Positions 14,653 to 61,400 of a stretch of DNA of 64,000 bases are shown in pieces; the stretch's first letter is position 1, and every line of letters begins with the position of its first letter. The position numbers and the translations under genes were made by a program. Under the pieces are notes generated by a model. The model was not told where the DNA came from and did no database searches. It saw nothing but the letters and a program-made list of their open reading frames with translations. Source of the DNA: a phage. Location: the sequence record OZ335964.1. The stretch is one strand, 5' to 3'.

Positions 14653-14687
14653 GGGAGTATCTTACTACTCCCCTGTTCTGGTGTCAA
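14653..14687 (-). promoter_or_regulatory. early promoter/stem-loop cassette (PeSL-like)
   Basis: Minus strand reads TTGACA-N9-GGGAGTAGTAAGATACTCCC; -10-like TAAGAT inside a 7-bp inverted repeat; upstream of LprI-like gene. Confidence 0.55.
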
Positions 14688-14694
14688 CTACTTT

Positions 14695-14850
14695 TTAAAT
14701 TTCTTCTACAGTAAAGTCTTCAATGTTGTTGTGCTCGGCGAACGTTGCCAGACCAGCATCCCATGCATCATCCTCAGAGAAGAATACACCGTAACGTTCA
14801 TATCCTTTAGCGCCTTCAAATTTAACCATTAATTTATGAGTATGTTTCAT
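14695..14850 (-). CDS. hypothetical small protein (51 aa)
   Basis: Not in ORF track (under 60 aa); ATG with AAGGAG SD; translated by hand as MKHTHKLMVKFEGAKGYERYGVFFSEDDAWDAGLATFAEHNNIEDFTVEEI. Confidence 0.4.
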   Translation of the reverse strand: MKHTHKLMVKFEGAKGYERYGVFFSEDDAWDAGLATFAEHNNIEDFTVEEI

Positions 14851-14882
14851 TTTTGATTCTCCTTCGTTGTCTTGATGAGTTT

Positions 14883-14911
14883 AGTATAGGGGATCGCCGA
14901 TCCCCTGTCAA
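14883..14911 (-). promoter_or_regulatory. early promoter/stem-loop cassette (variant)
   Basis: Minus strand reads TTGACA + 17-nt palindrome GGGGATCGGCGATCCCC + TATACT. Confidence 0.5.
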
Positions 14912-14920
14912 CCGCTATTT

Positions 14921-15133
14921 TTAATTTTTACCCGCTCGTGCATTAATACGCATTTTCTGCATAGCCATGATCTGGGTTATTGCTTCTTCTTTACGTTCTT
15001 GTGTGATAACGTGACCAGATTCCGCAAACTCTCCAGCGACTTCTTCCACGATCTCGCGAATTTGAGAACGTCCAAAGATGCGGTTTCCTTCGTAGCTCAT
15101 AAACTCGGTTACTACTTGCTCGATAGATTTCAT
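14921..15133 (-). CDS. hypothetical protein (70 aa)
   Basis: Track ORF 14921..15178 trimmed to M16, which has AAGGAG SD; the promoter cassette lies inside the track's N-terminal extension. Confidence 0.45.
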   Translation of the reverse strand: MKSIEQVVTEFMSYEGNRIFGRSQIREIVEEVAGEFAESGHVITQERKEEAITQIMAMQKMRINARAGKN

Positions 15134-15156
15134 GTGATTCTCCTTTCGTTTGGTAT

Positions 15157-15191
15157 GGGAGTATGTTACTACTCCCATTTCTTTACGTCAA
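15157..15191 (-). promoter_or_regulatory. early promoter/stem-loop cassette (PeSL-like)
   Basis: TTGACG-N9-GGGAGTAGTAACATACTCCC on minus strand. Confidence 0.55.
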
Positions 15192-15194
15192 CAA

Positions 15195-15356
15195 CTATTT
15201 TAAATTATTTTCGACCTTCATCCATTCCGCGTATTCTTGCGCGGCTACTTTCGGATTTAGTCCGTCTTCGTACATTGCTTCAAGTAATTCTTCGTCGGTG
15301 GGCTTATACCCTAGATAAGCCTCCACCTGATTTTTCCAAATTTTATACCAGTTCAT
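15195..15356 (-). CDS. hypothetical small protein (53 aa)
   Basis: Track ORF trimmed to M24 (MNWYKIWKNQ...) so it does not overlap the upstream gene. Confidence 0.4.
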   Translation of the reverse strand: MNWYKIWKNQVEAYLGYKPTDEELLEAMYEDGLNPKVAAQEYAEWMKVENNLK

Positions 15357-15360
15357 ATTA

Positions 15361-15633
15361 TCACCAGTCAAGAGCGCGTGTCTCTGCGTCTTCCCATGCT
15401 TGGTCCATAACAGCCTTGAAAACATATTCTAAAGTATCATCTTTAGAGAATCCGAAGACCTTAGACGGAATATCTTCAATTGCTACTCCCGCAACTTCTG
15501 CATTACGCGCTTGGCAATAATGCAACTCTAAGTTATCGAGATAGCGACCGCCTAATTTCTCCATATCATCCCAGCATTTCCAGTAACCTACTTTATCTGC
15601 AATTGCCAACACTTTGCTGTTTTTGTTGCTCAT
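15361..15633 (-). CDS. hypothetical protein (90 aa)
   Basis: Track ORF trimmed to M21 with AGGAG SD. Confidence 0.5.
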   Translation of the reverse strand: MSNKNSKVLAIADKVGYWKCWDDMEKLGGRYLDNLELHYCQARNAEVAGVAIEDIPSKVFGFSKDDTLEYVFKAVMDQAWEDAETRALDW

Positions 15634-15658
15634 CTTTGATTCTCCTTTTGTTTGATAT

Positions 15659-15693
15659 GGGAGTATATTACTACTCCCATTATTCACTGTCAA
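15659..15693 (-). promoter_or_regulatory. early promoter/stem-loop cassette (PeSL-like)
   Basis: TTGACA-N9-GGGAGTAGTAATATACTCCC on minus strand. Confidence 0.55.
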
Positions 15694-15699
15694 TAGATT

Positions 15700-15906
15700 T
15701 TATTCGATTATTTCAAATTTTGCTACCGGATCACCGTTTCGTTTGGTTGCAGTAAGTTTCTGTTTGTCAAAGTAAAACCAAATATAGTCACCATGAACTA
15801 CATCAAATGTGTTTCCGCTATTGTCCGTGAATACATCAACATCATAATCACACCCAACACTAAAGCTATAATTGATGTGATCGGTTTCAATGCAACGTAC
15901 TTTCAT
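15700..15906 (-). CDS. hypothetical protein (68 aa)
   Basis: Track ORF trimmed to M25 with AAGGAG SD. Confidence 0.45.
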   Translation of the reverse strand: MKVRCIETDHINYSFSVGCDYDVDVFTDNSGNTFDVVHGDYIWFYFDKQKLTATKRNGDPVAKFEIIE

Positions 15907-15977
15907 TTTTGAATCTCCTTTTTGTTTCACTGTGTGTATTATGCAATGCTGGATTATGGAAGTCAAACAACTTTTCA

Positions 15978-16007
15978 AATAAAAAAGCCGACCACAAGGA
16001 TCGGCTT
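15978..16007 (-). terminator. rho-independent terminator (minus strand)
   Basis: Minus-strand hairpin GCCGATCC-TTGT-GGTCGGC followed by TTTTTTATTTG. Confidence 0.5.
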
Positions 16008-16016
16008 AATAGTCAG

Positions 16017-16611: not shown

Positions 16612-16613
16612 AA

Positions 16614-17978: not shown

Positions 17979-17985
17979 CTTCACC

Positions 17986-18348: not shown

Positions 18349-18350
18349 TA

Positions 18351-18644: not shown

Positions 18645-18659
18645 AATGTATTCCCTCTA

Positions 18660-18682
18660 AGAAAGGCCGCGCAAAGCGGCCT
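18660..18682 (-). terminator. stem-loop / terminator (minus strand)
   Basis: GGCCGC-TTTGC-GCGGCC hairpin followed by TTTCTTAG on minus strand. Confidence 0.45.
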
Positions 18683-18689
18683 ATGTTGA

Positions 18690-20023: not shown

Positions 20024-20039
20024 AGTATTCATTCCTCTA

Positions 20040-20084
20040 TTAGTGGGCGACTCTCGCCGCCCGATTCACATCATTATACCAGAA
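20040..20084 (-). promoter_or_regulatory. candidate rIIB promoter (extended -10 TGgTATAAT) with stem-loop in the leader
   Basis: Minus strand reads TGGTATAAT just after the mini-ORF stop, then GGGCGGCGAGAGTCGCCC hairpin, then AGAGGA SD. Confidence 0.4.
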
Positions 20085-20227: not shown

Positions 20228-22336
20228 TTAAAATTTAACATTCTTAACCAGTTTCATAAAGTCTTGTGCTCGTTTGTCGTTGTGCAGAATACGATACCAG
20301 TTATCTACAATATCATACAGTAACGGGCTATTCTCTTTAAACTTCGCACAAACTGCTTTAATTCGTTCGTTTGCTGCCGTGAATTTTTCATCACAAATCT
20401 TTTTAGTTTCTTCGTCCATAATCCAACGGGTGTGAAGGAGTAACTTGGAAACCACTTTATTATAATGACGACCGTACAGTCTGTCAATAAATTCTGGAAC
20501 ACAGCGTTCTAATTCATCGTCATGATACAACATAGTGATCACACCCAGATATTCGCCATACCCCAGATGATTGGTCTTAACCTTCTTAGCCAGACCAGCC
20601 AGCTTACCGCGAACAAATTCTAGCGCACATTCCAGTTGTTCGTCAACGAGATATTTTTGTGTCTCATTACGGGTAATAATATACTTTGTTACCCCGAAGT
20701 AGTCAAGCGCCGTGTGTAATGTATTTTCATTATAGATCGATTGACGGCTACGGCTTTCGAATGCATCACCCACGCGGAACATGTGCAAGCCTGATAACTC
20801 GCGAATCTCTGCCGCTTTCATGTGATGGCTGGTTTTATGCCAACTGTCACCGATCTTTTCCACAATATACACGTTAGGCAGCTTAGGAGTCGCTTCACGC
20901 TGTACACGTTCTGTCTTCTCCGGCTTAACTGCTTTAGCACGCAGGTCGTCGGCCTCGGATACCTTAATCACGGTCATTTCAGATTCATCATAATACTGTT
21001 TGATGTACTCGAAAGTCTCCATATGTTTTTCGTTGTTCTGACGGAACACCAGTACCTTTTTATTGATGCCGTATTCCTGGACCATGCCGTTAAGAGTCAG
21101 TGCACGCAGTTTCGGTTTATCGGTATCATCAATAAGACATGTAATATCTTCTTTATGCATCCATACAAAATGCGTAATGTTGTATTGACTGCTAACGAAA
21201 GCAGGGCGCAATTTACTGATTGTATGTCGAGTACGATACAGAGTATACACTTGACCTTCTACGTCATTAGGCGAATCTTTACCAGCATTAACAAACTTAT
21301 TATAGATTTCTACCGGATCATCCCATTGTCCGATCTTACCCATCTTGCTAATAATATTGCGTTGAGTCGATGAATACTCGCTCATAAATTGCGCAAGTTT
21401 GCGCTCTGTTTTAATGTTGGCGATCTTTTCTTTAACCTTTTCCAACATCATTTCATTGATTTCTGCAATGCGTTTTTCGATGTTCGCTTTAGTCTCAATT
21501 GACAAGTGAACTTCTTCACGCGATGGCATCAGGTCCAGATCACCCAACTCAAAATTAATGTAAATGGTCTGGTGCTGGCGGTTTACAGCTTCTAACCATG
21601 TTCCGCGAACATATTCATACGGGATCGGATACTGGATCTTACCCATGATTGCATATACCACATAGGAATCGTTATCACGTCCATTACACACATAATAATT
21701 ATCAAAGCTAGGGAAATAATTAATTTCGATGGCATTGATATTAGGTTTGTGTTCCCCAAAATGACGCAGTACAAATTGTGCTTCTCGATGCCATGTCTGA
21801 ATATCTTTTTCCTTCACCGGAATAGTGATTTTCAGACCGTTGTCTTCATAGGTCGGTTCGTCGAAAATCTGCACCATTTTCGGCATAGAGTTTTGCACGA
21901 ATGCAGTAAAGCCATAAGCACGACCATTGTAGTAGTTTACGATTGTAAAGGTGTCGGTGTAGCTATAAGCAGATTTCGCACCTAAACCAAAAGATCCGAT
22001 ATAATCATTAGTCTGGTCTTTGGTTGATTCAAAGTAAACAGTAAACAGTTGTTCTAATTCTTTCTTAGACGGAATACCAGTACCATAATCACGCACAGAA
22101 AAATACGGTTCGATTGCAGTCGGTAAATGAATATCAAACGGACGATCTAAGGTTCCGGCTTCTTTGTGAGTGTCGGTAGCATTACATGAATACTCACGGA
22201 CGCAAGCACGCTCACAATATTGATAAGTGTTCTTAGAAAGCACCATAAAAGCCTTGCTACTTGCTTTCAGTGAAAAATCAACCGCACCGCTCAAGTCACT
22301 GCCAAATACTTCTTCATTATCAATATGCATTTTCAT
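20228..22336 (-). CDS. rIIA: rIIA protein (GHKL ATPase-like N-terminal domain)
   Basis: 702 aa; N-box VREYSCNATD and G1-box VRDYGTGIP of a GHKL fold; GAGGATT SD; adjacent to rIIB. Confidence 0.8.
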   Translation of the reverse strand: MKMHIDNEEVFGSDLSGAVDFSLKASSKAFMVLSKNTYQYCERACVREYSCNATDTHKEAGTLDRPFDIHLPTAIEPYFSVRDYGTGIPSKKELEQLFTVYFESTKDQTNDYIGSFGLGAKSAYSYTDTFTIVNYYNGRAYGFTAFVQNSMPKMVQIFDEPTYEDNGLKITIPVKEKDIQTWHREAQFVLRHFGEHKPNINAIEINYFPSFDNYYVCNGRDNDSYVVYAIMGKIQYPIPYEYVRGTWLEAVNRQHQTIYINFELGDLDLMPSREEVHLSIETKANIEKRIAEINEMMLEKVKEKIANIKTERKLAQFMSEYSSTQRNIISKMGKIGQWDDPVEIYNKFVNAGKDSPNDVEGQVYTLYRTRHTISKLRPAFVSSQYNITHFVWMHKEDITCLIDDTDKPKLRALTLNGMVQEYGINKKVLVFRQNNEKHMETFEYIKQYYDESEMTVIKVSEADDLRAKAVKPEKTERVQREATPKLPNVYIVEKIGDSWHKTSHHMKAAEIRELSGLHMFRVGDAFESRSRQSIYNENTLHTALDYFGVTKYIITRNETQKYLVDEQLECALEFVRGKLAGLAKKVKTNHLGYGEYLGVITMLYHDDELERCVPEFIDRLYGRHYNKVVSKLLLHTRWIMDEETKKICDEKFTAANERIKAVCAKFKENSPLLYDIVDNWYRILHNDKRAQDFMKLVKNVKF

Positions 22337-22619: not shown

Positions 22620-22814
22620 TTACACATTTTCAATCACCCATTGCAGATGGGCTTCTTCGGCAACCAGTTCAGCGCGGCTTTTCTCTAAGCACTTGCTGTA
22701 TTCTTTACGTTCCCACTCGGCAATTTCGTTTTTCAGGACTTCTTCATAGTAAGCAATTACTCCTTTCAGGTCTGAAACTTTACGGTTTGCCAATTCGATG
22801 TAATGGTTACGCAT
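22620..22814 (-). CDS. hypothetical protein (64 aa)
   Basis: ATG with AAGGAG SD. Confidence 0.45.
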   Translation of the reverse strand: MRNHYIELANRKVSDLKGVIAYYEEVLKNEIAEWERKEYSKCLEKSRAELVAEEAHLQWVIENV

Positions 22815-23001
22815 TTTGATTCTCCTTTGTTACTAGATAACGAATTTGGTCTTGCATTGCGATCAGTTCCCAGCGTGCTACTTTCATCATGGAAACTGAC
22901 TCTTTGAACATAATATTAGCTTTTTCCTTCTCCCCTGTCAAGTAGATTTCTGCAATTTTTTCACAAAATTTTTGAGTTTCTTCATTCTTAAACGGTTTCA
23001 T
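22807..23001 (-). CDS. hypothetical protein (64 aa)
   Basis: Track ORF starts at TTG; first ATG is M4. Confidence 0.45.
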   Translation of the reverse strand: MKPFKNEETQKFCEKIAEIYLTGEKEKANIMFKESVSMMKVARWELIAMQDQIRYLVTKENQNA

Positions 23002-23025: not shown

Positions 23026-23060
23026 GGGGACATTATGATATATCCCCGATCCAGTGACAA
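23026..23060 (-). promoter_or_regulatory. early promoter/stem-loop cassette (variant)
   Basis: Minus strand reads TTGTCA-N7-GGGGATATATCATAATGTCCCC, with CATAAT as -10 inside the palindrome. Confidence 0.4.
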
Positions 23061-23367: not shown

Positions 23368-23390
23368 TATTAAATCCTCATAAAAGAAAA

Positions 23391-23429
23391 GGGAGACTCC
23401 CATTATAGAGAATCTCCCTTGTATGTCAA
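23391..23429 (-). promoter_or_regulatory. early promoter/stem-loop cassette (variant)
   Basis: Minus strand reads TTGACA-tacaa-GGGAGATTCTC-TATAAT-GGGAGTCTCCC. Confidence 0.5.
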
Positions 23430-23989
23430 CTAAAATTTAAAGATGCAAACTCCCCGTGATGAATTTTTGCATATTCATCATATGCTCTAGCGGCTTCCTC
23501 CTGAGTAGCAAACGATCCTATGTATTTTCTGTATCCGTTTATCCTTATTTGTGCTTGCCACGGTCTTTTGCTAGATCCTTTGCGATGAGTAACACCATTA
23601 TATATGCTCGTGCACCCGTCCATTTTCTTTTTATTGTACATGTTTTGTTGTTGTGTTGCCTCCCGTAAATTTGGTGGATTGTTGTTTTCTGGATTCCCGT
23701 CTATGTGGTCTATTACCTTAACCTGTGTTCCATATTCAAGAAACCAGACAATTCTATGTACAAGATATGTAGATGTTCTCTTTTTAACCTTATTGTAAAC
23801 ATCTATTGCCAAATGACCGTAATTTAACTTTTTTGTTTTTACTTTATCACCGACTCGGTAGAAATATCCCTCTGGTAGACCATTAAAAGACGGACTATTT
23901 GTTTTGTGATATAGAACACCTTCCGTGTGTTCAAATCTGCGTTTTAATTCCTCTTGAATTTCAGTATTCCAAAATTTCGCACTTTTCAT
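23426..23989 (-). CDS. HNH homing endonuclease (HNH_3 + AP2 domain)
   Basis: IDHIDGNPENNNPPNLREATQQQN HNH motif; C-terminal AP2-like GVTHRKGSSKRPWQAQIRINGYRKYIGSFATQEEAARAYDEYA; ATG 1 nt after the topo II large-subunit stop. Confidence 0.8.
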   Translation of the reverse strand: MKSAKFWNTEIQEELKRRFEHTEGVLYHKTNSPSFNGLPEGYFYRVGDKVKTKKLNYGHLAIDVYNKVKKRTSTYLVHRIVWFLEYGTQVKVIDHIDGNPENNNPPNLREATQQQNMYNKKKMDGCTSIYNGVTHRKGSSKRPWQAQIRINGYRKYIGSFATQEEAARAYDEYAKIHHGEFASLNFS

Positions 23990-26758: not shown

Positions 26759-27001
26759 TTAAATATCCTCCGCGATGTGCCGGAATAACTCCAGATCATT
26801 TTTATCAAGAATGAAACCGCTACAATCAATAATTCCTTTACCGTAATTATCGGTTAATAGTCGGTCCGTTGCCATGTATGCGCGTACTTTGTTGTTAAAA
26901 TTCATTACATGTTGTGCATAGTCACAATGAATCTTTTGACGGTTCCACGCGACAATTGATTCAAGATGAATTACCTTAGAGATATCGTTAATAACAACCA
27001 T
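26759..27001 (-). CDS. hypothetical protein (80 aa)
   Basis: ATG with GAGGT SD. Confidence 0.5.
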   Translation of the reverse strand: MVVINDISKVIHLESIVAWNRQKIHCDYAQHVMNFNNKVRAYMATDRLLTDNYGKGIIDCSGFILDKNDLELFRHIAEDI

Positions 27002-27002
27002 A

Positions 27003-27170
27003 TCAAAAACCTCGCTTAGTGAAATGTTCGATCATTTTATTGATACATGCAGCTTCACTATCGCCGGACACATTCCAGCCATATAGACCCCATCTAAAAC
27101 ACATGGTAACAGTTCCATTGTGACGGCTTACCGTCACATCATTAAATTCTGGGATACTTCGCATAATCAT
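27003..27170 (-). CDS. hypothetical small protein (55 aa)
   Basis: Not in ORF track; ATG with GAGGAA SD overlapping the dda stop; MIMRSIPEFNDVTVSRHNGTVTMCFRWGLYGWNVSGDSEAACINKMIEHFTKRGF. Confidence 0.4.
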   Translation of the reverse strand: MIMRSIPEFNDVTVSRHNGTVTMCFRWGLYGWNVSGDSEAACINKMIEHFTKRGF

Positions 27171-30206: not shown

Positions 30207-30239
30207 AATAAAAAAGCCTCCAATCTTTCGACGGGAGGC
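30207..30239 (-). terminator. rho-independent terminator whose stem supplies the SD of the next gene
   Basis: Minus-strand hairpin GCCTCC..GGAGGC followed by TTTTTTATT then ATG. Confidence 0.45.
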
Positions 30240-30324
30240 ATAATAAAACCATTATAGAGTAGTGTCAATCACAAAGTGTATGTGATCTATAAATAAGTTT
30301 GCTAGAACTAAAGGAGACCACAAA

Positions 30325-31254
30325 ATGAACTATAAACGTATTTATGATAACCTGATTGAACGTGCTAAGACTAGAACTATCGACGGATATACAGAAAAGC
30401 ATCACATCATACCACGTTGTATGAATGGAAGCGATGATGATAGCAATCTAGTTAGACTCACCCCAGAGGAACATTACATTGCTCACCTTCTGTTAGTTAA
30501 GATTTACCCAGATAACAGTAAATTGGTTTATGCTGCAAATATGATGTGCGTTTCTTCTGATTCACATAATGGAGAAAGACAGTCAAATAAACGTCATGGT
30601 TGGTTGCGTAGAAAAATGGCAGAGGCACATAGTAAAAGAATCCGCGATAGAATGGAGAACGATCCTGAATATAGAGCTAAGGTTTCGGAATGGGCTAGAA
30701 AAATGGGTAAAGCCATGAAAGGAGTTAAGCGAGGACCGGAATTTAGCAGAAAGTTGGCAGAAAGAAACAGAAATACCGTGATGAAAGAAGAAACTAAACG
30801 TAAAATCGGGGAAGCCAACAAAGGAAGGAAACGTACAGAAGAATATAAAAGAAAACATAGTGAGCGGTATAAGGGTGAAGGTAATCCGATGTATGGTAAA
30901 CGAGGAAAGGAACATCCGGCATATGGTACTAAACCGTGGAACAACCAAACATCATTTGTTGAGCAGAAAGCATGGTGGCGGTTCGCTGGCATGTTCTATG
31001 ACTGGTATCAGATGGATATTGACCGTGGGAAACATAAACGCCACGGTCATAAAAGAATGCTTGATGAATTGGGTTTTGTTGGTTGGCGAGAAAAAGAGCC
31101 AGCCGCAGCAAGACGATCAATTGAAATGTTTGCTAAAGGCTGGAATCCTTATGAAGACCAAGAATGGTTAGATTATATTAATACCCGCTTTCCAAACGAC
31201 GATAGTTTTCCGCGTTCTTCAACATATACAAAACAAACAAATCCTTTGCAGTAA
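30325..31254 (+). CDS. HNH homing endonuclease with NUMOD3-like repeats (opposite strand)
   Basis: EKHHIIPRCMNGSDDDSNLVRLTPEEHYIAH HNH motif; repeated GxxNxxYGK motifs; AAGGAG SD; only plus-strand gene in the early region. Confidence 0.8.
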   Translation: MNYKRIYDNLIERAKTRTIDGYTEKHHIIPRCMNGSDDDSNLVRLTPEEHYIAHLLLVKIYPDNSKLVYAANMMCVSSDSHNGERQSNKRHGWLRRKMAEAHSKRIRDRMENDPEYRAKVSEWARKMGKAMKGVKRGPEFSRKLAERNRNTVMKEETKRKIGEANKGRKRTEEYKRKHSERYKGEGNPMYGKRGKEHPAYGTKPWNNQTSFVEQKAWWRFAGMFYDWYQMDIDRGKHKRHGHKRMLDELGFVGWREKEPAAARRSIEMFAKGWNPYEDQEWLDYINTRFPNDDSFPRSSTYTKQTNPLQ

Positions 31255-31696
31255 GACCTAATGCTAGGAATTTACACATAATAAAATGGAGTTGGTCCAC
31301 CGCCTCTAGGTATGTTTCGAGACGATCCGCCTCTGGCAAATCACTAAAGAGGCGGTTTCGTGCTTCCATGTGATTTGCTTTCCAGTGTTTCCATACCGCG
31401 CTCGCGTCCTTCCCGTTAGACATTCCACCTAATGCAGTATACAATTCTCGTGTTTCGTCGTCAAGAGCATTATCATTCGCTCGAATAAAATCTAAAATTT
31501 CTCCACACGTTTTCAATTCGTCAATTTTTGCTACCCACGGACGGTCCTTAGACACCTGATCCTGTAACGCTTTTTGCATATTCATCATGTGTTGGAACGG
31601 GTTATCACCGTTGGCGATGATTTCTTTATATTTTTCTTCTGCAAAATTCAGAGTTTCCGCATTTACTAAGTGTGCACAAGAATTAAATTCTGACAT
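31178..31696 (-). CDS. 56: dCTP/dUTP pyrophosphatase gp56 (MazG-type all-alpha NTP-PPase)
   Basis: Track ORF trimmed to M3 with GAGGTGA SD; conserved blocks CAHL, ASAVWKHWKA, YMLKNAENY...GY. Confidence 0.7.
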   Translation of the reverse strand: MSEFNSCAHLVNAETLNFAEEKYKEIIANGDNPFQHMMNMQKALQDQVSKDRPWVAKIDELKTCGEILDFIRANDNALDDETRELYTALGGMSNGKDASAVWKHWKANHMEARNRLFSDLPEADRLETYLEAVDQLHFIMCKFLALGLTAKDLFVLYMLKNAENYRRLESGY

Positions 31697-34890: not shown

Positions 34891-34918
34891 GTTATATCTC
34901 CTATCAAATCATTCACCA

Positions 34919-34934
34919 GCGCCCCGTAGGGCGC
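34919..34934 (-). other. intercistronic GC stem-loop downstream of gene 41
   Basis: GCGCCC-CGTA-GGGCGC hairpin between gp41 stop and the next SD. Confidence 0.35.
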
Positions 34935-34940
34935 ATTTTA

Positions 34941-36667: not shown

Positions 36668-36688
36668 AATATAATCCTCTCTAGATAT

Positions 36689-36710
36689 GAAAAAGGGGCA
36701 CGTAGCCCCT
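36689..36710 (-). terminator. rho-independent terminator after uvsX
   Basis: Minus-strand hairpin AGGGGC-TACGT-GCCCCT followed by TTTTTC. Confidence 0.55.
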
Positions 36711-36722
36711 TTACTACCATTG

Positions 36723-37993: not shown

Positions 37994-38054
37994 AGTATAT
38001 TTCTCACGTTGGCGGGTATCGTCACCCAACACCCGCCATTATACACACTTTATC

Positions 38055-41301: not shown

Positions 41302-41383
41302 AATATAAACTCCTTCACTTACGAAAGACACTCATTATAGGGGAATCGACTTAGTTTGTCAATACCCCTATCCCATCAGTATC

Positions 41384-43333: not shown

Positions 43334-43353
43334 GGGGAGTATTTACACTCCCC
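43334..43353 (-). other. intercistronic stem-loop between genes 45 and 44
   Basis: GGGGAGT-GTAAAT-ACTCCCC hairpin just after the gp45 stop; same stem sequence family as the promoter cassettes. Confidence 0.4.
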
Positions 43354-43365
43354 ACAAACATTATA

Positions 43366-45103: not shown

Positions 45104-46772
45104 TCATTTCAGTGAATCGCCCACGTTTAACCATCTTGAGATGACGGCTAAAATCATCAGGGTTATGGTCACGATGGCTGATAATATACACGTTATCATC
45201 TAACTTGTCAATGATGGAATCAAGTGCTTTTACGCCTTGAACGTCGGTCGCTCCATCATAAATTTCGTCGAGTACCAACAAAGAAATATTAGTACCAGAT
45301 ACCTTACCAGCAACATCACGCCATGTAAAGAGCATCGCAAGATCAATACGTGCTTTTTCGCCTTGACTGAATGATGTATACGAAAACGATTCACGCCCCC
45401 GTGATTTGATTGTTTCGTTAAACTCTTCATCTAGCGTAAAGATATAATCTGCTTCCATGATATCAAGATAATACGCAATCCGATCATTGAAATATGGAAT
45501 ATATTTCTTGACGATAGACGCCTTAACACCGGAATCCTTCAACATTTCTGTTACAAATCCACGATGATATTTTTCAAGAACTAGCTTTGATTTTTCATTA
45601 GTAATCTCTACCAGTTCGTGTTCCAGTTTAGCAAGTTCTTCGGAATTGTCAACCCTTTCTTTTTGTAATTCCTGAATTGCTTTCTGGATCTGTTTAGCAC
45701 GACCTACAGATGCCGTTAAATTCGCTCTCTGTGACTCTATAGCGCGTTTAATTTCCAAGACCTTAGTTTGTGCTGTCTGGAAAGAATTGGCTTTCTCTGC
45801 GTATTCTACGCGTTTCTCGTCAATAAGAGACAGTTTATGTTCCGCTTGTGCTTTTTGTTCGCGTACAGCCTGATCATTACCCTGAATGATCGGTTGTGTG
45901 CACGTCGGGCAGACCCCGCCTTTCTCGTGCATATGGATAACACGATCAAAGTTCTGGATCTGTGCACCAATCTGTGCGATAGCCGTATTAATTTTAGCCA
46001 ATGCCGCGCTAGGATCTTCCGGCATAACAACAGCCAATAGCTCATCGGTCAAGCGCGTTTCTTCGGCTTTGAATGCTTTAGCCGATTCTACCTCTTTATC
46101 ATACATATTCTGCAAACGCTGTAGATTCTCGGCACTCGCCTTGCTAGCGTCTTCTATGTACTTTTTATGAGTGTTGATTTGTTGCTGAACGTGATTAGCT
46201 TTCATTTCCTGCATTTGGATATTCTGGGTAATCTCGCGCACATACGCTTTATTCAGTTTATCCATTTCGCCTAGCGTAGCAATATCAAGCAAATCCTCGA
46301 CCAGTTTACGGCGACCCGCTGCCGGAAGACTCATAAACGGAACATAACCAGCAGTACCTAAAACAACGATCTGTTTAAAGCTGGCTAGGTTCATGCCTAT
46401 GATACCTTCAAAATATTCCTGAAAGTCTTTGGTGCTTGCGCTCTCGTCGATCTTTTGACCGTCGCGATGCACTTCGAATACTTCCGGTTTTTGACCACGT
46501 TTGATATAAAACTCTTTCCCGTCCAGTTCAAACCAGACTTCGACTAACAGTTTCTTTTTGTTGACGCTGTTAATCAATTGGCCTTTCTTGATACTACGAA
46601 ACGGTTTACCGAACAACACAAAGCAAAGAGCCTCGATCATGGTCGATTTACCAGCACCGTTAACACCAGTGATTAGTGTCTTTTTGAATCCGTCTAGCTG
46701 AATCTCAACAGGTTCAGCACCCACGCTCATTATATTTTGATAGCGCAAGGTTTTAAAATTTAACTTTGCCAT
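45090..46772 (-). CDS. 46: recombination endonuclease subunit gp46 (SbcC/Rad50-like ATPase)
   Basis: Walker A GVNGAGKST, long coiled-coil middle, C-terminal Walker B LLVLDE; start set to M6 with GGAGTGG SD (560 aa). Confidence 0.85.
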   Translation of the reverse strand: MAKLNFKTLRYQNIMSVGAEPVEIQLDGFKKTLITGVNGAGKSTMIEALCFVLFGKPFRSIKKGQLINSVNKKKLLVEVWFELDGKEFYIKRGQKPEVFEVHRDGQKIDESASTKDFQEYFEGIIGMNLASFKQIVVLGTAGYVPFMSLPAAGRRKLVEDLLDIATLGEMDKLNKAYVREITQNIQMQEMKANHVQQQINTHKKYIEDASKASAENLQRLQNMYDKEVESAKAFKAEETRLTDELLAVVMPEDPSAALAKINTAIAQIGAQIQNFDRVIHMHEKGGVCPTCTQPIIQGNDQAVREQKAQAEHKLSLIDEKRVEYAEKANSFQTAQTKVLEIKRAIESQRANLTASVGRAKQIQKAIQELQKERVDNSEELAKLEHELVEITNEKSKLVLEKYHRGFVTEMLKDSGVKASIVKKYIPYFNDRIAYYLDIMEADYIFTLDEEFNETIKSRGRESFSYTSFSQGEKARIDLAMLFTWRDVAGKVSGTNISLLVLDEIYDGATDVQGVKALDSIIDKLDDNVYIISHRDHNPDDFSRHLKMVKRGRFTEMNVNI

Positions 46773-47016
46773 TAATCCACTCCGCAATCACACATTCCAT
46801 AATATTAAATGCTAACACATCTTCATCAATGTTGTAAACACTTGCTGCCTTCACTTTAACTAATGTGTCTCTGCGATCTGGCAGCATGATCACATAATCC
46901 AGTGTCGCCGGATCATATGTCATAAAGGGATCAATGTAAATCCCTTTATTCAATGCCAGATATTCGCGAAGACCTTCTATAACCCTGTGTCTAAGGTAGG
47001 TCATCGATAGAATCAT
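46753..47016 (-). CDS. hypothetical protein (87 aa)
   Basis: ATGA overlap with upstream ORF; lies between genes 47 and 46. Confidence 0.45.
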   Translation of the reverse strand: MILSMTYLRHRVIEGLREYLALNKGIYIDPFMTYDPATLDYVIMLPDRRDTLVKVKAASVYNIDEDVLAFNIMECVIAEWINGKVKF

Positions 47017-47878: not shown

Positions 47879-48124
47879 TTACATACTCCACGATTCACGG
47901 GCAATCACATTCTGGGTAATATCAGCAATCTTACGGGATACGATGTTTGTTAGCCCCTCTTTGGTGATATTTTCACGATCAAATGGGATTTCGTCATGAG
48001 TCCATAACCCAGAGTTAGACCGAAATGATAGCATATACTGACCATCTCGCACAACCTCAAATACATGGATCTTTGTGAACTTCGCTAAACCTTCGTTGAT
48101 TTCTTTCAGTGCATTAGTAATCAT
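47879..48124 (-). CDS. hypothetical protein (81 aa)
   Basis: Track ORF starts at TTG; M5 ATG has GGAGG SD. Confidence 0.45.
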   Translation of the reverse strand: MITNALKEINEGLAKFTKIHVFEVVRDGQYMLSFRSNSGLWTHDEIPFDRENITKEGLTNIVSRKIADITQNVIARESWSM

Positions 48125-48150: not shown

Positions 48151-48179
48151 AGTATAACGGGGATTTCTCCCCGCGTCAA
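48151..48179 (-). promoter_or_regulatory. early promoter/stem-loop cassette (variant)
   Basis: Minus strand reads TTGACG + CGGGGAGAAATCCCCG hairpin + TATACT, directly after the gp47 stop. Confidence 0.5.
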
Positions 48180-49205
48180 CTAACTTTTTGCGCTATTTAC
48201 TTCGGCTAAAAGTTCATCAGAAATACGCTTGACCGCCGCAAGTTCTTCTGGTTCTAGGTTTTGTTCTTCCAGATATTCATAGACCATCTGAATAGTGCTT
48301 TTAACTTCAATAACACCTGTTTCCTGTGATGCGCTACTCTCCAGCTTATGGACCACTTTTAGCTTGTGCACAACGGCCTCTAACGCGCTTTCTAACTTAG
48401 TTAACCCATTATCAGCGACCGTTGCGATAAGACGCACACTAAGCCCCTTAAAGCGTTCTACATCGATTTTATCATCTGACGGGTAAGTAATACGCACATG
48501 ATAAGTTTTGTCATTCTGAATAAACTCTTTTTTGTGTGTATCGGTATCGAATACCCAAAAACCACGCGGATCGTTTTCGTCACCCGCCGTTAGTGTGTAT
48601 GGTGTACCAATATATGTTACGTTACCGCCATCGCTGATAGTATGAAAGTGACCGGAAAACACTTCACGGTATTTCTTGAGGAAGTCCGCGCTATAACCTT
48701 CGGATTTTAGCCCTTTATAGAAATAGTAACCGGACAATTCCCAATGGCCTACACAATATTCGCTGAATGAGTTTTGAATAAACTCTAAAATCTCTGATTT
48801 ATTGTCATCACAAAACCACGGGAACAGATCAAATGATACACCATCAAAGGTAACTGTTTCCGGCTTATCAATGACCTTAATGCAATCATACTGGCTTAAC
48901 ACTTCACGCGGTGCGTTAGGCTGGATCTTATTGCGCTTAAACATATCATGATTCCCGACCGTGATATAACAAGTAATACCAGCCTCTTCCAGTAACGGGA
49001 TGACCTTAGTACGGTTAAATTTCATGGTTTCATGAGTAATTGCTTTTCGGCAATCAAACCAATCCCCTGTTTGAATCCATGTCTTAATATTATGCTCTTT
49101 GGAGTATTCAACCGCTTTCTTGATGGTATCAAGAATATACTCATGCACCCACGGATCATCGCCACCGATACCAGTATGCAGATCACCTAAAAGCAAAATT
49201 TTCAT
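48180..49205 (-). CDS. 47: recombination endonuclease subunit gp47 (Mre11-like phosphoesterase)
   Basis: Calcineurin-like phosphoesterase motifs LLLGDLH, GNHD, GHWE, GHFH; strong collinearity with T4 gp47. Confidence 0.85.
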   Translation of the reverse strand: MKILLLGDLHTGIGGDDPWVHEYILDTIKKAVEYSKEHNIKTWIQTGDWFDCRKAITHETMKFNRTKVIPLLEEAGITCYITVGNHDMFKRNKIQPNAPREVLSQYDCIKVIDKPETVTFDGVSFDLFPWFCDDNKSEILEFIQNSFSEYCVGHWELSGYYFYKGLKSEGYSADFLKKYREVFSGHFHTISDGGNVTYIGTPYTLTAGDENDPRGFWVFDTDTHKKEFIQNDKTYHVRITYPSDDKIDVERFKGLSVRLIATVADNGLTKLESALEAVVHKLKVVHKLESSASQETGVIEVKSTIQMVYEYLEEQNLEPEELAAVKRISDELLAEVNSAKS

Positions 49206-49255
49206 AGTCTCTTCCTCTCTTCGTTTTCGATGCTCTCACTATATCACAGAAAAAT

Positions 49256-49290
49256 AAAAAGGGAAACCCCTTTCGGAGTCTCCCTTATAA
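49256..49290 (-). terminator. possible terminator (weak stem, strong U-tract)
   Basis: Minus-strand short GC stems followed by TTTTTATTTTT. Confidence 0.35.
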
Positions 49291-49295
49291 AGCCA

Positions 49296-52312: not shown

Positions 52313-52571
52313 AAATCGCCCTCAGTTCTTTATAGCCTCCAATGTGCTCGTTGTCAATGAATATCTGGGGGTATACAAACCGGAGGCTCTTTGAGTTCAG
52401 CCTCCCCGCCAGTTCTTCAATCATATCACGGTCGGGAATAATGTCAACCCCGACCTGCTTGAATACTGGTTTAAGTGTATACGGAATACCCAGATCATCC
52501 AGTAGCTTCATTGCACTAATACAACCATAACAATGATAAGCCTCTTTCGGTATACCGTATATCTCGATCAT
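52302..52571 (-). CDS. nrdH: glutaredoxin-like protein (NrdH-like)
   Basis: 89 aa; CYGC active site and glutaredoxin C-terminal block PQIFIDNEHIGGY. Confidence 0.7.
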   Translation of the reverse strand: MIEIYGIPKEAYHCYGCISAMKLLDDLGIPYTLKPVFKQVGVDIIPDRDMIEELAGRLNSKSLRFVYPQIFIDNEHIGGYKELRAIYDY

Positions 52572-54886: not shown

Positions 54887-55390
54887 TCAAATAATTTTCA
54901 CTGGAATACTATTAACAATCTTGTATTGTACTTGATTGTCAGACCCCCGCCACGGCTTCTTCGTTGGCATATCTTTAATATAACGCCCATCGATGAACAT
55001 GTCAACTGATTCTACAATTTTTCTTTGCTCATCATTCAATTGGTCAAGGGTATAACCGGACCATAGCCAAATATCTTTATTTGGCATCCATGATTTTACC
55101 TCATCGATGATCCGCTGTACACCCTTTAAATTGCGTTTATACAGTGGATCACCACCTAAGAATGTTAGCCCCTGAATAAAATCAGGTCTAAGCAGATCCA
55201 GAATCAATCCCATTGTATCATCGGTGAATGGTTCCCCGTTCTTAGGATTGAGTAGGCTAGCATTAAAGCAACCATCACATGCGTGTGAACATCCGGTAAC
55301 GTAAAGGGAGACTCTCACTCCCTCACCGTTAACCATATCACAATCTTTAATATCGGCATAGCGTAGTTTGCCGTATGTATCAGAACTCAT
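54887..55390 (-). CDS. nrdG: anaerobic ribonucleotide reductase activating protein NrdG (radical SAM)
   Basis: CxxxCxxC cluster (GCSHACDGCFN) and glycine-rich SAM region; start set to M3. Confidence 0.85.
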   Translation of the reverse strand: MSSDTYGKLRYADIKDCDMVNGEGVRVSLYVTGCSHACDGCFNASLLNPKNGEPFTDDTMGLILDLLRPDFIQGLTFLGGDPLYKRNLKGVQRIIDEVKSWMPNKDIWLWSGYTLDQLNDEQRKIVESVDMFIDGRYIKDMPTKKPWRGSDNQVQYKIVNSIPVKII

Positions 55391-55532
55391 ATTCAATTAC
55401 CCCGAACTCGTTTACAATCTGCGCTTTATAGTAACCACCGCGAGATGCCAATAGATAAGCTGGGCTTAGGTATTCGCATTCACGGATTTCTACTTGTGCG
55501 TTTTCAGTTTCCCAAATCAGTAAAGTCCACAT
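55380..55532 (-). CDS. hypothetical small protein (50 aa)
   Basis: Track ORF trimmed to M26 with AGGAG SD; lies between the promoter cassette and nrdG. Confidence 0.4.
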   Translation of the reverse strand: MWTLLIWETENAQVEIRECEYLSPAYLLASRGGYYKAQIVNEFGVIEYEF

Positions 55533-55574: not shown

Positions 55575-55603
55575 AGTATAGGGGATCTCGCGATCCCCGT
55601 CAA
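55575..55603 (-). promoter_or_regulatory. early promoter/stem-loop cassette (variant)
   Basis: Minus strand reads TTGACG + GGGGATCGCGAGATCCCC palindrome + TATACT. Confidence 0.5.
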
Positions 55604-56695: not shown

Positions 56696-56724
56696 GTTGT
56701 CCTCTCGTTGTTTTCGATGTGAGC

Positions 56725-56752
56725 ATTATACATTAGCTAATCATGTTGTCAA
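56725..56752 (-). promoter_or_regulatory. sigma70-type early promoter (TTGACA-N16-TATAAT)
   Basis: Consensus hexamers on minus strand, just after the nrdD terminator. Confidence 0.5.
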
Positions 56753-56764
56753 CACCCCAAAACG

Positions 56765-56790
56765 AAAAAGCCGACCCTTTCGGATCGGCT
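56765..56790 (-). terminator. rho-independent terminator after nrdD
   Basis: Minus-strand hairpin AGCCGAUCC-GAAA-GGGUCGGCU followed by UUUUUCGUUUU. Confidence 0.6.
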
Positions 56791-56795
56791 AAAAA

Positions 56796-58658: not shown

Positions 58659-58671
58659 TGTATCACCTATG

Positions 58672-58693
58672 AAAAAGCGGGATTTCTCCCGCT
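58672..58693 (-). terminator. stem-loop / terminator just upstream of nrdD
   Basis: Minus-strand hairpin AGCGGGA-GAAA-TCCCGCT followed by TTTTTC, then the nrdD SD. Confidence 0.5.
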
Positions 58694-58702
58694 CGTTGAT
58701 AG

Positions 58703-59197
58703 TTATTTTACCAGTTCTGCTAATTCTTTTTCCGCCGCTTCCAGTTCAGCTTTCAGTTGTTTGATCTCTTGTCGCTTCTTATTAGCGGCTTCCTGCTTAC
58801 TATTTCGGATAACCTGATCTAGATACAACTCCCAATCCTGAATATTTTTGATAATGTAGCCGTCAACGTTCAGAGCTTTAATATTAAGAACTTCTTCCAG
58901 CTTACTTAAAGAACGTTGTGTTTCTGGGAAGAAATAGTCATATTCACCTCGGTCAAACCAGTAGCTTATGCCAGCTTTATCTAAACGACGATGCAATTCA
59001 TAAAAATCTCTACCATCTTCGACGATGAGTTTGTCTACATCGCCATTACAGTTAACAGAGACTTTGAATCTAATATTATCAACCCCACCAAAAACATCAA
59101 TAAGGATAGTTCCGATCGTGTTATCCGCGCTTCCAGTATCCATAAAAGATTCTAGTTTTTCTTGATTAGTAACGTACCAAACATCTTGTTTCCACAT
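58703..59197 (-). CDS. hypothetical protein (164 aa) with coiled-coil C-terminus
   Basis: GAGAGGATTATATT-ATG leader identical to neighbouring paralogs; E/K-rich helical tail. Confidence 0.5.
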   Translation of the reverse strand: MWKQDVWYVTNQEKLESFMDTGSADNTIGTILIDVFGGVDNIRFKVSVNCNGDVDKLIVEDGRDFYELHRRLDKAGISYWFDRGEYDYFFPETQRSLSKLEEVLNIKALNVDGYIIKNIQDWELYLDQVIRNSKQEAANKKRQEIKQLKAELEAAEKELAELVK

Positions 59198-59221
59198 AAT
59201 ATAATCCTCTCGTTGTTAAGT

Positions 59222-59255
59222 GGGAGTATTATAGCATACTCCCTTCGCATGTCAA
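59222..59255 (-). promoter_or_regulatory. early promoter/stem-loop cassette (PeSL-like)
   Basis: Minus strand reads TTGACA-N6-GGGAGTATGCTATAATACTCCC; the -35 overlaps the upstream gene stop. Confidence 0.55.
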
Positions 59256-60430
59256 GCACTAACTTTTTTCTTTACTGCTTTCACCTTCTGGCGAATTGCT
59301 CGAATCTCTTCGATCTCTTTTTCAGTCTCTTTAACAATTTCTTTGCGATTCTGAATATCTGTATCGAGATTATCATCAAGTTTAGGCAGCATGTCAATCA
59401 AGAACTTTTTAAAGTCTTTCAGGTTTCTGATAACAGCACCTTCACCCATTACCGCCACCCCTACACCATCCGGCAGATCGCCAAACAGTTTAACCAGTTC
59501 AGACAGATGATCATGATCTTCTAGTGCTTCTTCCGGTTCAGATGGCAGTTCAACAAAGTTATAACGTTCATCATTGCTGATGATGTGATACCAGCAAAGC
59601 CCGAATGATTTCGGTGTATATTCTACACCATCAATTTCAACCGAGTCAACACTTCCATAATCATCTACTTTAGTTACCTTAAATCCTTGTCCCAGCTTTT
59701 GAACAATTTCAACAACATGACTTGATACAGTTTCAGCGGTAAACCAATATGGCAAATTATGCTGATTTGGCTTGTAGCGTTCACCTACTTTAAATCTCTG
59801 ACCAGCCGCTTGCATAGCATGAAATTGTTGTTTCGTGATTTCCGCGAAGTATTCAAATTCGCTACCATCAAACAAGCAATTCCATTGATCACAAAAACGA
59901 TCCGCCTTGACGGTTTCACCTTTCGCGGTGATCACGGTAGCTGATCCGTGCAATTCTTCTTCAACTAAAAAGCCATATTCGACAAAATCGACAAGTTTCA
60001 TGGCTTCTTTGTGCTCTGGATCATTCTCTCCCCAGAATCGCTTAAATTCTTGCAAACCTTCCGGGGTAAACGAATAACATTTACCTTTTTCAAAGTAAGT
60101 CGGCATTGCATCCTCTTTCTTGTTCATAGCTTCGTATGCCTCTTTTGAGATACGTTTAAAGTATTTGCGCTCATTGTGCATAATCATAGTAGCCCAATAA
60201 TAAACGATATCCTCAGCGGAATAAACTACATCTCCAGCTTCAATAGTAATAACATGACCGTGGTCATCTTTTTCTAATACTTTAAAGCCCTTTTCTACGA
60301 TTTCAGCAACCCGAATATGACCACGGCGCGAAGCATCGGTCAGAATAATTGAATAGCGAGAAAAGTCTAGAAACTCATCTTTACCGCCTTCACGGAATGC
60401 ATAGTAATGACCTTCAAAGAATTTAGCCAT
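59252..60430 (-). CDS. paralogous family protein (392 aa), three tandem domain repeats
   Basis: Three copies of the G..Y.F...GF.V...D..G.V domain, with NERKYFKRIS shared with the next paralog; helical tail. Confidence 0.55.
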   Translation of the reverse strand: MAKFFEGHYYAFREGGKDEFLDFSRYSIILTDASRRGHIRVAEIVEKGFKVLEKDDHGHVITIEAGDVVYSAEDIVYYWATMIMHNERKYFKRISKEAYEAMNKKEDAMPTYFEKGKCYSFTPEGLQEFKRFWGENDPEHKEAMKLVDFVEYGFLVEEELHGSATVITAKGETVKADRFCDQWNCLFDGSEFEYFAEITKQQFHAMQAAGQRFKVGERYKPNQHNLPYWFTAETVSSHVVEIVQKLGQGFKVTKVDDYGSVDSVEIDGVEYTPKSFGLCWYHIISNDERYNFVELPSEPEEALEDHDHLSELVKLFGDLPDGVGVAVMGEGAVIRNLKDFKKFLIDMLPKLDDNLDTDIQNRKEIVKETEKEIEEIRAIRQKVKAVKKKVSA

Positions 60431-60454
60431 AATATAATCCTCTCGTTGTTTAGA

Positions 60455-60490
60455 CGGGAGTATCTTACTACTCCCGTTTCATCATGTCAA
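60455..60490 (-). promoter_or_regulatory. early promoter/stem-loop cassette (PeSL-like)
   Basis: Minus strand reads TTGACA-N9-(C)GGGAGTAGTAAGATACTCCC(G). Confidence 0.55.
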
Positions 60491-61053
60491 GCGTTAAATG
60501 ACTTTTGGATCTCTTTCAGTTCAGCTACTTTATCGGCGCTGAATTTAGCGTAGGTATCATGTCGAATAATTTCACTTTCAAGAAAGGTTTCCAGCCGAGA
60601 TCTATTTTCAATAAGGAACTCTTTCAGGTCTTCCGCGTTCTTGATAAAGATTTTATTGTCGGTAATGTCATCTTCAATCGCAAAGGAGATAGAGCGAACT
60701 TTACCAAACAAGTTAATCAGATCTTCCAGAGATTCTTCTTTCTTAACTGGTTTCATTTCTTCAAACTGCTTTTTAGTGATGCGTTTAAAGTATTTGCGCT
60801 CGTTTGCAGCAATCAGAACAGATGCACCTTCATACTCATGAGTTTCTACCAGATACACACGACCCATCGCATCAACAGTGAGAACTTTAAAGCCGTTACA
60901 AAGCACGTCATACAAGAACTTATTATGTTGCGGACATCGTTTGATAAATTCCTCTGCGGACTCAGCATTACGGAAAGTGTAATAACGACCTCGTTCAAAA
61001 ACAGCATCAGTTGAAGACTTAGCCGGATACAATTTATACGTTTTCTGTACCAT
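60487..61053 (-). CDS. paralogous family protein (188 aa)
   Basis: Track ORF trimmed to M7 with GAGGATT SD; NERKYFKRITK block shared with the three-repeat paralog. Confidence 0.5.
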   Translation of the reverse strand: MVQKTYKLYPAKSSTDAVFERGRYYTFRNAESAEEFIKRCPQHNKFLYDVLCNGFKVLTVDAMGRVYLVETHEYEGASVLIAANERKYFKRITKKQFEEMKPVKKEESLEDLINLFGKVRSISFAIEDDITDNKIFIKNAEDLKEFLIENRSRLETFLESEIIRHDTYAKFSADKVAELKEIQKSFNA

Positions 61054-61067
61054 AATATAATCCTCTA

Positions 61068-61340
61068 TCATTTCACTAATTGAACAGCACGAAACAGAAT
61101 GCGGTCACACGGAAGAAGCATAAATTCCCAACGCGGATCAAAGTCTTTAGCGGTATATGTTTTCCCATCAACCGAGATTTCACTTACATAACCAATAGGT
61201 GACACTTTAAGAATAGTAAATCCATTCTTGATGACTTCGTAGGTATCTTTCAATCCTTCGTAGTCATCCTCTAGGAAGTCTTTACGTGCTTGCTCAGATT
61301 TAAAAACATAGGCCACACCGGATTTAAACATCTTACGCAT
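61068..61340 (-). CDS. paralogous family protein (90 aa), single domain
   Basis: EQARKDF ... FTILKV..YVSEISVDGKTY matches the family core; AAGGAG SD. Confidence 0.5.
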   Translation of the reverse strand: MRKMFKSGVAYVFKSEQARKDFLEDDYEGLKDTYEVIKNGFTILKVSPIGYVSEISVDGKTYTAKDFDPRWEFMLLPCDRILFRAVQLVK

Positions 61341-61365
61341 TGTTGATTCTCCTTCTTGATTAGAT

Positions 61366-61400
61366 GGGAGTATTTTACTACTCCCATTTCATGCTGTCAA
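61366..61400 (-). promoter_or_regulatory. early promoter/stem-loop cassette (PeSL-like)
   Basis: Minus strand reads TTGACA-N9-GGGAGTAGTAAAATACTCCC. Confidence 0.55.

Follow-up and report, generated by a model that had tools for sequence, protein, structure and literature searches.

RB49-type promoter and stem-loop cassettes in a Krischvirus genome and their coincidence with gene-content breakpoints

A stretch of 64,000 nucleotides from a phage genome (sequence record OZ335964.1), here called the window, was found to carry repeated intergenic cassettes in which a putative sigma70 early promoter is combined with a hairpin in front of a small early gene. With a probability estimated at about 0.9, these are promoter-early stem-loop (PeSL) cassettes of the type described in phages RB49 and phi1, which also act as recombination points. 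The cassettes are assigned to the PeSLs because the genome is that of a Krischvirus, the published anatomy is present and homologous cassettes exist in RB49. The original prediction, made from the letters of the window, had pointed to this resemblance, and it is borne out by near-identical cassettes of RB49 (193/192, 205/204, 206/205 and 211/210). The identification is correct but not new, since PeSLs have already been published in the same phage genus.

The sequenced phage is a T4-type coliphage of the RB49 kind. Its identity to RB49, phi1, JSE, kvi, pEJ01 and some 55 others is about 97%; upon genome comparison no relative was fully identical to the window. The gene order is as in RB49, with rIIA (20228-22336) corresponding to RB49 positions 1-2109 and an offset of 22,830 nt between window and RB49 coordinates. 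Nearly all genes between 12 and 64 kb are carried by the minus strand. The gene list was curated and checked against the annotation of RB49 and kvi.

PeSLs were described in RB49 and phi1 at approximately 51-52 per genome (Arbiol et al. 2010, Genome Biol Evol 2:140, PMC2839356). Their definition comprises a sigma70-consensus promoter preceded by an AT-rich region, a 3' end that carries a Shine-Dalgarno sequence and an ATG, and a stable, polyG/polyC-rich stem-loop in any of five positions relative to the promoter. They favour hyperplastic regions, lie upstream of open reading frames (ORFs) without database match, flank gene 43 on both sides and adjoin nrdD (PMC2839356). Comeau et al. (2014, PMC4122927) summarise the RB49 type by the promoter TTGACA-N17-TATAAT and a stem of the form G(n)-loop-C(n).

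A 20-nt core, GGGAGTAGTAANATACTCCC, was present in five copies in the window, all on the minus strand (at 14653, 15157, 15659, 60456 and 61366), and had no match in 100 dinucleotide-preserving shuffles. The longer motif TTGACA-N9-GGGAGTAGTAANATACTCCC was found by scanning at the same five sites with at most one mismatch (14653-14687; 15157-15191, where the -35 box is TTGACG; 15659-15693; 60456-60490; 61366-61400), as predicted except for one start that had been placed at 60455, one position off. The six variant sites of the prediction also read as described on the minus strand. Over the whole minus strand, 91 promoter-like sites were counted, 20 of which have a GC-rich hairpin nearby, against 38.4±6.0 and 0.71±0.85 (maximum 4) in shuffles. 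The plus strand contained 30 promoter-like sites and a single one with a hairpin. The cassette hairpins fold with energies between -11.8 and -21.3 kcal/mol, and comparison with shuffles puts their z-scores between -2.9 and -6.5. A PeSL hairpin may be located upstream of the -35 box, over the -35 box, in the spacer, over the -10 box or downstream of the -10 box, and all five positions are represented among the approximately 19 promoter-plus-hairpin cassettes counted in the window.

The five core copies (A1 to A5) and the six variants make up the 11 sites listed earlier, and two designs were distinguished among them. In eight, namely the core copies and the sites at 59222-59255 (A6), 23026-23060 (T10a) and 23391-23429 (T10b), the -10 box lies in the hairpin loop and 3' arm. 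In the other three (14883-14911, 48151-48179 and 55575-55603; S1 to S3), GGGGATC…GATCCCC or GCGGGGA…TCCCCGT lies wholly between TTGAC(A/G) and TATACT. The idea that the -10 box always sits inside the inverted repeat holds for the former group and fails for the latter, where the repeat is in the spacer. All 11 sites are in intergenic regions of 54-75 nt and read as sigma70-like promoters close to consensus, as had been proposed, with at most one mismatch in the -35 box, a spacer of 16-17 nt and at most two mismatches in the -10 box. At each of them the upstream stop codon falls -3 to +10 nt from the -35 box, and an ATG preceded by GGAG or GAGG follows 26-42 nt past the -10 box; the 25 nt upstream are 64-84% AT, compared with 59.6% window-wide. 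The ORFs downstream of the cassettes encode 50-392 aa, mostly without Pfam match. The cassettes are intergenic, measure 55-110 bp each and repeat as whole units that comprise AT-rich leader, hairpin and 5' untranslated region. A short leader of conserved sequence lies between the -10 box and the Shine-Dalgarno sequence. Every element of the PeSL definition that can be read from sequence was found in the window: promoter, hairpin, AT-rich region with stop codon, Shine-Dalgarno sequence with ATG, homology and clustering, the clusters lying at 14.6-16.0 kb and 59.2-61.4 kb.

To compare orthologues, short queries of 17 window cassettes were searched against fetched relatives. Sixteen have orthologues, 91-100% identical in RB49 and at least eight relatives, and A3 (15634-15699) had no match in this short-query search. 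The stems of the 16 are almost invariant, with changes concentrated in the loops and in the part of the spacer outside the stem. The exact stem of the core copies, referred to as family A (GGGAGTA-GTAANA-TACTCCC), was present in one to five copies in 16 of 17 fetched related sequences, the exception being an RB49 stretch outside the region of the window. In IMG/VR it occurred in three contigs only, all Krischvirus-like, so the stem appears confined to the genus, with no wider family. An Rfam scan of the whole window gave no family at or above gathering score.

For those RB49 PeSLs that have been studied by experiment, the intergenic sequences were read directly. PeSL211/210 and 206/205 are of the spacer type (TTGACA-GGGGATC…ATCCCC-TATACT/TATAAT), like the window sites at 14883 and 55575, and PeSL193/192 (GGGAGTGT…ATACTCCC with TAAGAT) and 205/204 (GGAGTA-GTAAGA-TACTCC) are family-A-like; 192/191 also matches S1 and S3. 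Stems and leaders of PeSL205/204, 193/192, 211/210 and 206/205 are shared with window cassettes. For the RB49/phi1 cassettes, a promoter activity of about 13,000 Miller units was reported for PeSL206/205, clones of PeSL193/192 were obtained only with mutated promoters, terminator activity was demonstrated for the PeSL211/210 stem-loop only, and mini-circles were detected by polymerase chain reaction (PMC2839356). The window and these phages share the genus, the architecture, near-identical sequences, the locations at the flanks of gene 43 and near nrdD, and the indels of small ORFs. Nothing essential differs, and the assortment of cassettes and modules is the window's own. Specific to it are the five exact family-A copies (one to five in the related sequences carrying the stem), an extra module, designated I, a change in the -35 box at 23060, and four HNH insertions beside or between cassettes.

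The coincidence of cassettes with gene-content breakpoints was assessed by chained blastn of the window against seven relatives spanning approximately 13-63.5 kb (two RB49 records, LF73P4, kvi, pEJ01, SAP and MIZ4). Of 18 distinct colinearity breaks, a junction lies no more than 15 nt from a cassette in seven (p = 4×10−4, binomial test with a chance of about 8.5% per event), and in three both junctions are in cassettes (p = 5×10−6). At 14702|14900-14915, between cassettes A1 and S1, ORF 14695-14850 is lost in three genomes. At 15198|15213, in cassette A2, an insertion of about 500 bp is present in three genomes, with an overlap of 15-16 nt. At 15666|15903, between A3 and the cassette at 15907-16016, ORF 15700-15906 is absent in four genomes, with an overlap of 36-38 nt. 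In these cassette-to-cassette indels the flanking alignments overlap by 15-38 nt, so the crossover lies in sequence common to both cassettes, in the AT-rich/-35 segment or in that of the leader and Shine-Dalgarno sequence. Crossover in shared cassette sequence is what the published PeSL model predicts (PMC2839356). With gene boundaries as the control, eight of 19 boundaries with a cassette were used by rearrangement, against seven of 70 without (Fisher p = 0.003), a difference of about 6.5-fold. A map of 14.6-16.0 kb in 12 genomes showed modules I, B-C(-F), G, A(-J) and D, each bounded by promoter cassettes, to be present or absent in many combinations. The suggested recombination hotspot is supported for this variable region by the three double-cassette indels and the assortment of modules.

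All cassettes listed here are on the minus strand. A1 (14653-14687; TTGACA-17-TAAGAT) has GGGAGTA/TACTCCC over the -10 box with a folding energy of -11.8 kcal/mol and precedes a 252-aa ORF (13866-14624). Family-A hairpins of 9 bp are found in A2 (15157-15191; TTGACG-17-TAACAT; -14.1 kcal/mol), before a 70-aa ORF (14921-15133), in A4 (60454-60490; TTGACA-17-TAAGAT; -15.2 kcal/mol), before a 392-aa frd.2-like ORF (59252-60430), and in A5 (61364-61400; TTGACA-17-TAAAAT; -13.8 kcal/mol), before a 90-aa ORF (61068-61340). A3 (15659-15693; TTGACA-17-TAATAT), also with a family-A hairpin, precedes a 90-aa ORF (15361-15633). A6 (59222-59255) combines the consensus TTGACA-16-TATAAT with GGGAGTAT/ATACTCCC over the -10 box (-13.3 kcal/mol) and lies before a 164-aa ORF (58703-59197). 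The spacer type is represented by S1 (14883-14911; TTGACA-17-TATACT; GGGGATC-GGC-GATCCCC), of the same type as RB49 PeSL211/210 and 206/205 and located before a 51-aa ORF (14695-14850), S2 (48151-48179; TTGACG-17-TATACT; GCGGGGA-GAAA-TCCCCGT), before an 81-aa ORF (47879-48124), and S3 (55575-55603; TTGACG-17-TATACT; GGGGATC-GCGA-GATCCCC), before a 50-aa ORF (55380-55532), in which relatives differ in the loop only.

T10a (23026-23060; TTGTCA-17-CATAAT) has GGGGATAT/ATGTCCCC over the -10 box and precedes a 64-aa ORF (22807-23001). Its -35 box at 23055-23060 reads TTGTCA in the window and TTGACA in all nine relatives compared, a difference that looks like a phage-specific point change weakening the promoter. 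T10b (23389-23429) carries the consensus TTGACA-16-TATAAT, with the -10 box in the loop of a 13-bp hairpin that is followed by TTTTCTTTT (-21.3 kcal/mol). It was scanned as both a 12/12 promoter and a canonical intrinsic terminator, and it abuts a window-specific HNH ORF (23426-23989). The longest ORF of the gene downstream begins at ATG 23403, inside the -10 box and loop, and is annotated in this way in kvi, SAP and others. If the transcript begins at the T10b promoter, this gene more likely starts at ATG 23367, which has GAGGA in front of it.

Beyond the 11 sites, at least eight further cassettes were located, including two candidates inside genes. The cassette at 15907-16016 has a terminator hairpin (16007-15985) with a T-run upstream of TTGACT-17-CATAAT (15966-15938) and precedes ORF 15700-15906. 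At 30207-30275, upstream of modB, TTGACA-17-TATTAT is followed by GCCTCC…GGAGGC and a T-run; colinearity with all seven relatives breaks at 30268, at the -35 box of this cassette. Gene 43 is flanked by two cassettes. In the downstream one (37994-38075; TTGACA-16-TATAAT) a 12-bp hairpin begins 2 nt past the -10 box, and in the upstream one (41302-41383; TTGACA-17-TATAAT) the whole promoter, annotated in the RB49 record as a hypothetical early promoter, is enclosed by an ATAGGGG…CCCCTAT stem. The cassette upstream of gene 47 (49206-49295) consists of a 12-bp terminator hairpin with T-run followed by an extended -10 box (TGATATAGT), and in RB49 and MIZ4 an HNH ORF is inserted beside it, at 49202-49206. 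Downstream of nrdD (56696-56795), a terminator hairpin AGCCGATCC-GAAA-GGGTCGGCT with T-run precedes the consensus TTGACA-16-TATAAT.

The hairpin between genes 45 and 44 (43334-43353) had been noted as a copy of the core stem lacking a promoter. It is present as written and has a similar stem that is not identical to that of the core (GGGGAGT/ACTCCCC), and it does not lack a promoter: TTGACT-17-TATAAT (43388-43360) ends 6 nt upstream of GGGGAGT-GTAAAT-ACTCCCC and GTTTT (-13.6 kcal/mol), the cassette as a whole covering 43334-43388. In the RB49 record the hexamers are annotated as a hypothetical early promoter, and the hairpin loop carries an annotated late-promoter-like element. Six of the seven relatives carry the segment unchanged, and kvi differs at a single position of the loop.

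Three elements are of lower confidence. A probable cassette upstream of rIIB (20024-20084) has an extended -10 box (TGGTATAAT) followed by the hairpin GGGCGGC-GAGA-GTCGCCC; promoter scans gave no -35 match there. A low-confidence candidate inside ORF 46753-47016, upstream of gene 46 (46890-46950), has an 11-bp hairpin over a TTTACA -35 box and a second hairpin after it, the two adjoining hairpins together reaching -28.5 kcal/mol over 61 nt. In a low-confidence candidate within nrdH (52400-52460), GGTCGGGG…TCCCGACC encloses the -35 box of TTGACA-16-TATGAT.

The original prediction made no mention of termination or attenuation of read-through, a documented function of the stem-loop. The canonical terminator form, a hairpin followed by a T-run, was found at 23389-23429, 15985-16007, 49206-49295, 56696-56795 and 43334-43353. 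These five cassettes and the canonical intrinsic terminators have in common a GC-rich RNA hairpin and the T-run behind it. Upon scanning the plus strand for antisense terminators, 15155-15178 was the only family-A hairpin to pass the T-run criterion, because the promoter spacer is A-rich; the other family-A hairpins have four T in eight on that strand, as read by eye. The record of phage TB34 lists plus-strand 'terminator' features at 3659-3687, 4206-4235 and 11591-11627, intergenic positions of the kind that hold cassettes. GC-rich hairpins with no adjoining promoter are located at 18645-18689, 34891-34940, 36668-36722 and 58659-58702, three of them followed by T-runs, and look like plain terminators between early genes. 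In pEJ01 an HNH insertion lies right beside the hairpin at 36668-36722.

In the proposed mechanism, unmodified host sigma70 RNA polymerase would start early transcription of the small downstream gene at the cassette, by analogy with the homologous RB49/phi1 cassettes. In family A the -10 box (TAANAT) is followed by ACTCCC and then A, and a start 7 nt past the hexamer would fall just beyond the 3' arm. The cassette's own transcript would consequently be free of the hairpin, which would be present in read-through RNA. In such RNA from upstream, the hairpin may attenuate or terminate the transcript, so that each small gene would be insulated from its neighbours. For the family-A hairpins, attenuation is inferred by analogy from a reporter assay on a spacer-type RB49 stem-loop. 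The dispersed cassette repeats would further let T4-type recombination cross over between them, deleting, inserting or swapping the ORF modules that they flank. No dedicated recombinase is known to act on PeSLs, and the exchanges are presumed to proceed by general homologous recombination of the T4 type.

Several points weigh against this reading of the cassettes. Unlike canonical terminators, family A and the spacer type have no U-tract, their tails being ATCAAGAC, ACCAAACG, TATACT and similar, and an independent scan of 13.0-24.5 kb found 23420-23389 and 16007-15985 as the only canonical terminators on the minus strand. The sole PeSL stem-loop that has been assayed as a terminator, that of PeSL211/210, is of the spacer type and not of family A. 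With a divergence of about 3% among the relatives and stems that are nearly invariant, the comparison of orthologues is uninformative on covariation. Clean cassette-to-cassette rearrangements number three, all within 14.6-16.0 kb, and three or four of the seven cassette-adjacent breaks involve HNH insertions that may be unrelated to cassette recombination. Anatomy, enrichment, conservation in relatives and the cassette-to-cassette junctions were established here, and the evidence for promoter activity, for termination by one spacer-type hairpin and for mini-circles comes from the literature on homologous RB49/phi1 cassettes only (PMC2839356). For the present phage, the activity of each cassette and its start site are predicted from sequence.

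It was also considered that the palindrome might be an operator for a dimeric phage-encoded DNA-binding protein, as had been raised in the original prediction, either a repressor of early promoters or a recombination factor recognising GGG…CCC hairpins or duplexes. Arbiol et al. speculate on a specific protein targeting GGGG…CCCC (PMC2839356), every stem starts with GGG and ends with CCC, and identical seven-base arms, GGGAGTA/TACTCCC, recur at five window loci and at one to five loci in 16 of 17 related sequences. This identity within family A is equally explained by recent spread or gene conversion among the repeats. Among the paralogues, the stem pairs differ on both sides, as in GGGAGTAT/ATACTCCC (window 59222), GGGTGTAT/ATACACCC (RB49 186/185) and GGGGATAT/ATATCCCC (RB49 199/198); the stem GGGGATAT/ATGTCCCC at window 23026 has one G·T pair, and only the outer GGG/CCC pairs are constant among the -10-overlapping paralogue stems. 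In a MAFFT alignment of the -10-overlapping hairpins, the 7-bp and 8-bp groups had their 5' arms placed two columns apart and no single structure line fitted, so this comparison of stems was made by eye, without formal pair counting. The inner stem positions change by compensatory substitution, which points to selection on pairing and not on sequence, and hairpins in five positions relative to the -35 and -10 boxes do not suit one operator geometry. Since the stems change in this compensatory way and the position of the hairpin varies, selection for pairing is favoured over a single protein operator sequence. No candidate regulator was identified, no search aimed at one having been made. An operator function with one sequence and a fixed position is not what the cassettes show and is considered very improbable. 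The narrower idea that the family-A hairpin is a specific site of a phage protein that switches early promoters off or starts cassette exchanges is judged very improbable; if true, it would make PeSL shuffling site-specific and not a by-product of general recombination.

The cassettes might also not be composite elements at all. Ordinary early promoters and terminators or mRNA-stabilising hairpins would then merely share short intergenic regions, and the rearrangements would reflect selection for indels at gene boundaries. Minimal intergenic space would force the two elements to overlap, the four promoterless hairpins mentioned above and many strong promoters without a hairpin (e.g. at 22445, 20487 and 29699) demonstrate that each occurs separately, and most rearrangements elsewhere are homing-endonuclease insertions. 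Such chance neighbourhood is, however, at odds with cassettes that repeat whole from leader to 5' untranslated region, with junction overlaps of 15-38 nt within shared cassette sequence, with the more frequent use of cassette-bearing gene boundaries, and with a -10 box inside the hairpin in eight cassettes, a specific repeated design. This explanation is regarded as extremely improbable, and PeSL cassettes remain the preferred identification.

The T4/PST and KVP40/nt-1 elements resembling PeSLs are likewise composite promoter-terminator cassettes around variable ORFs in hyperplastic regions, but with other promoters (TTTACW…TAYWAT and TTGYVH…TAWWAT) and AT-richer stems (A3-4G3…C3T3-4 and AGNA…TCNT) (PMC4122927). 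In the window, the promoters follow the sigma70 consensus of the RB49 type and the stems are of the GGG…CCC form. Lambdoid morons and integron cassettes are comparable in being single genes with their own promoter and/or terminator that are gained or lost as units, and the attC sites of integrons are imperfect palindromes at cassette boundaries. Conserved flanking repeats are not considered necessary for the gain of morons, however, and integrons require an integrase and attC/attI sites.

Homing endonucleases of the HNH type form a second source of variation. Four ORFs with the Pfam domains HNH_3, NUMOD4 and NUMOD3 were found at 23426-23989, 32747-33310 and 39260-39817 (inside gene 43) on the minus strand and at 30325-31254 on the plus strand, and all four are absent from most relatives. 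Other HNH insertions occur in relatives at 36681, 40099, 49204 and 62194. The breaks at 13586|13807, 54083|54317, 54571|54857 and 58867|59175 are replacements by divergent alleles. Outside 14.6-16.0 kb, most gene-content differences are due to homing endonucleases and not to PeSLs.

Gene 43 (38055-41301) is split by the HNH ORF at 39260-39817 into ORFs 38055-39239 and 39814-41301. In kvi and MIZ4 it has a different HNH ORF at window position 40099|40108, and it is intact in RB49, SAP and pEJ01. The region of gp56 (dCTPase) at 30268-31674 has no nucleotide alignment with any of the seven relatives, and the gene itself is present at 31178-31696. The allele is a divergent one beside the plus-strand homing endonuclease ORF, which points to co-conversion from another lineage. 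At 26998-27055, kvi and pEJ01 have about 120 extra bases, with flanking alignments that overlap by 58 nt and no cassette involved, which suggests a tandem duplication or an additional small ORF.

The present analysis replicates the PeSL findings in one more genome of the genus Krischvirus and in some twelve newer relatives, and sets PeSL events apart from homing-endonuclease events. It is of use for annotating this genome, with early promoters and corrected start codons, and leaves the understanding of these elements unchanged. In that understanding, PeSLs are a concrete mechanism of modular evolution in T4-like phages, which would insulate small accessory genes and act as crossover points.

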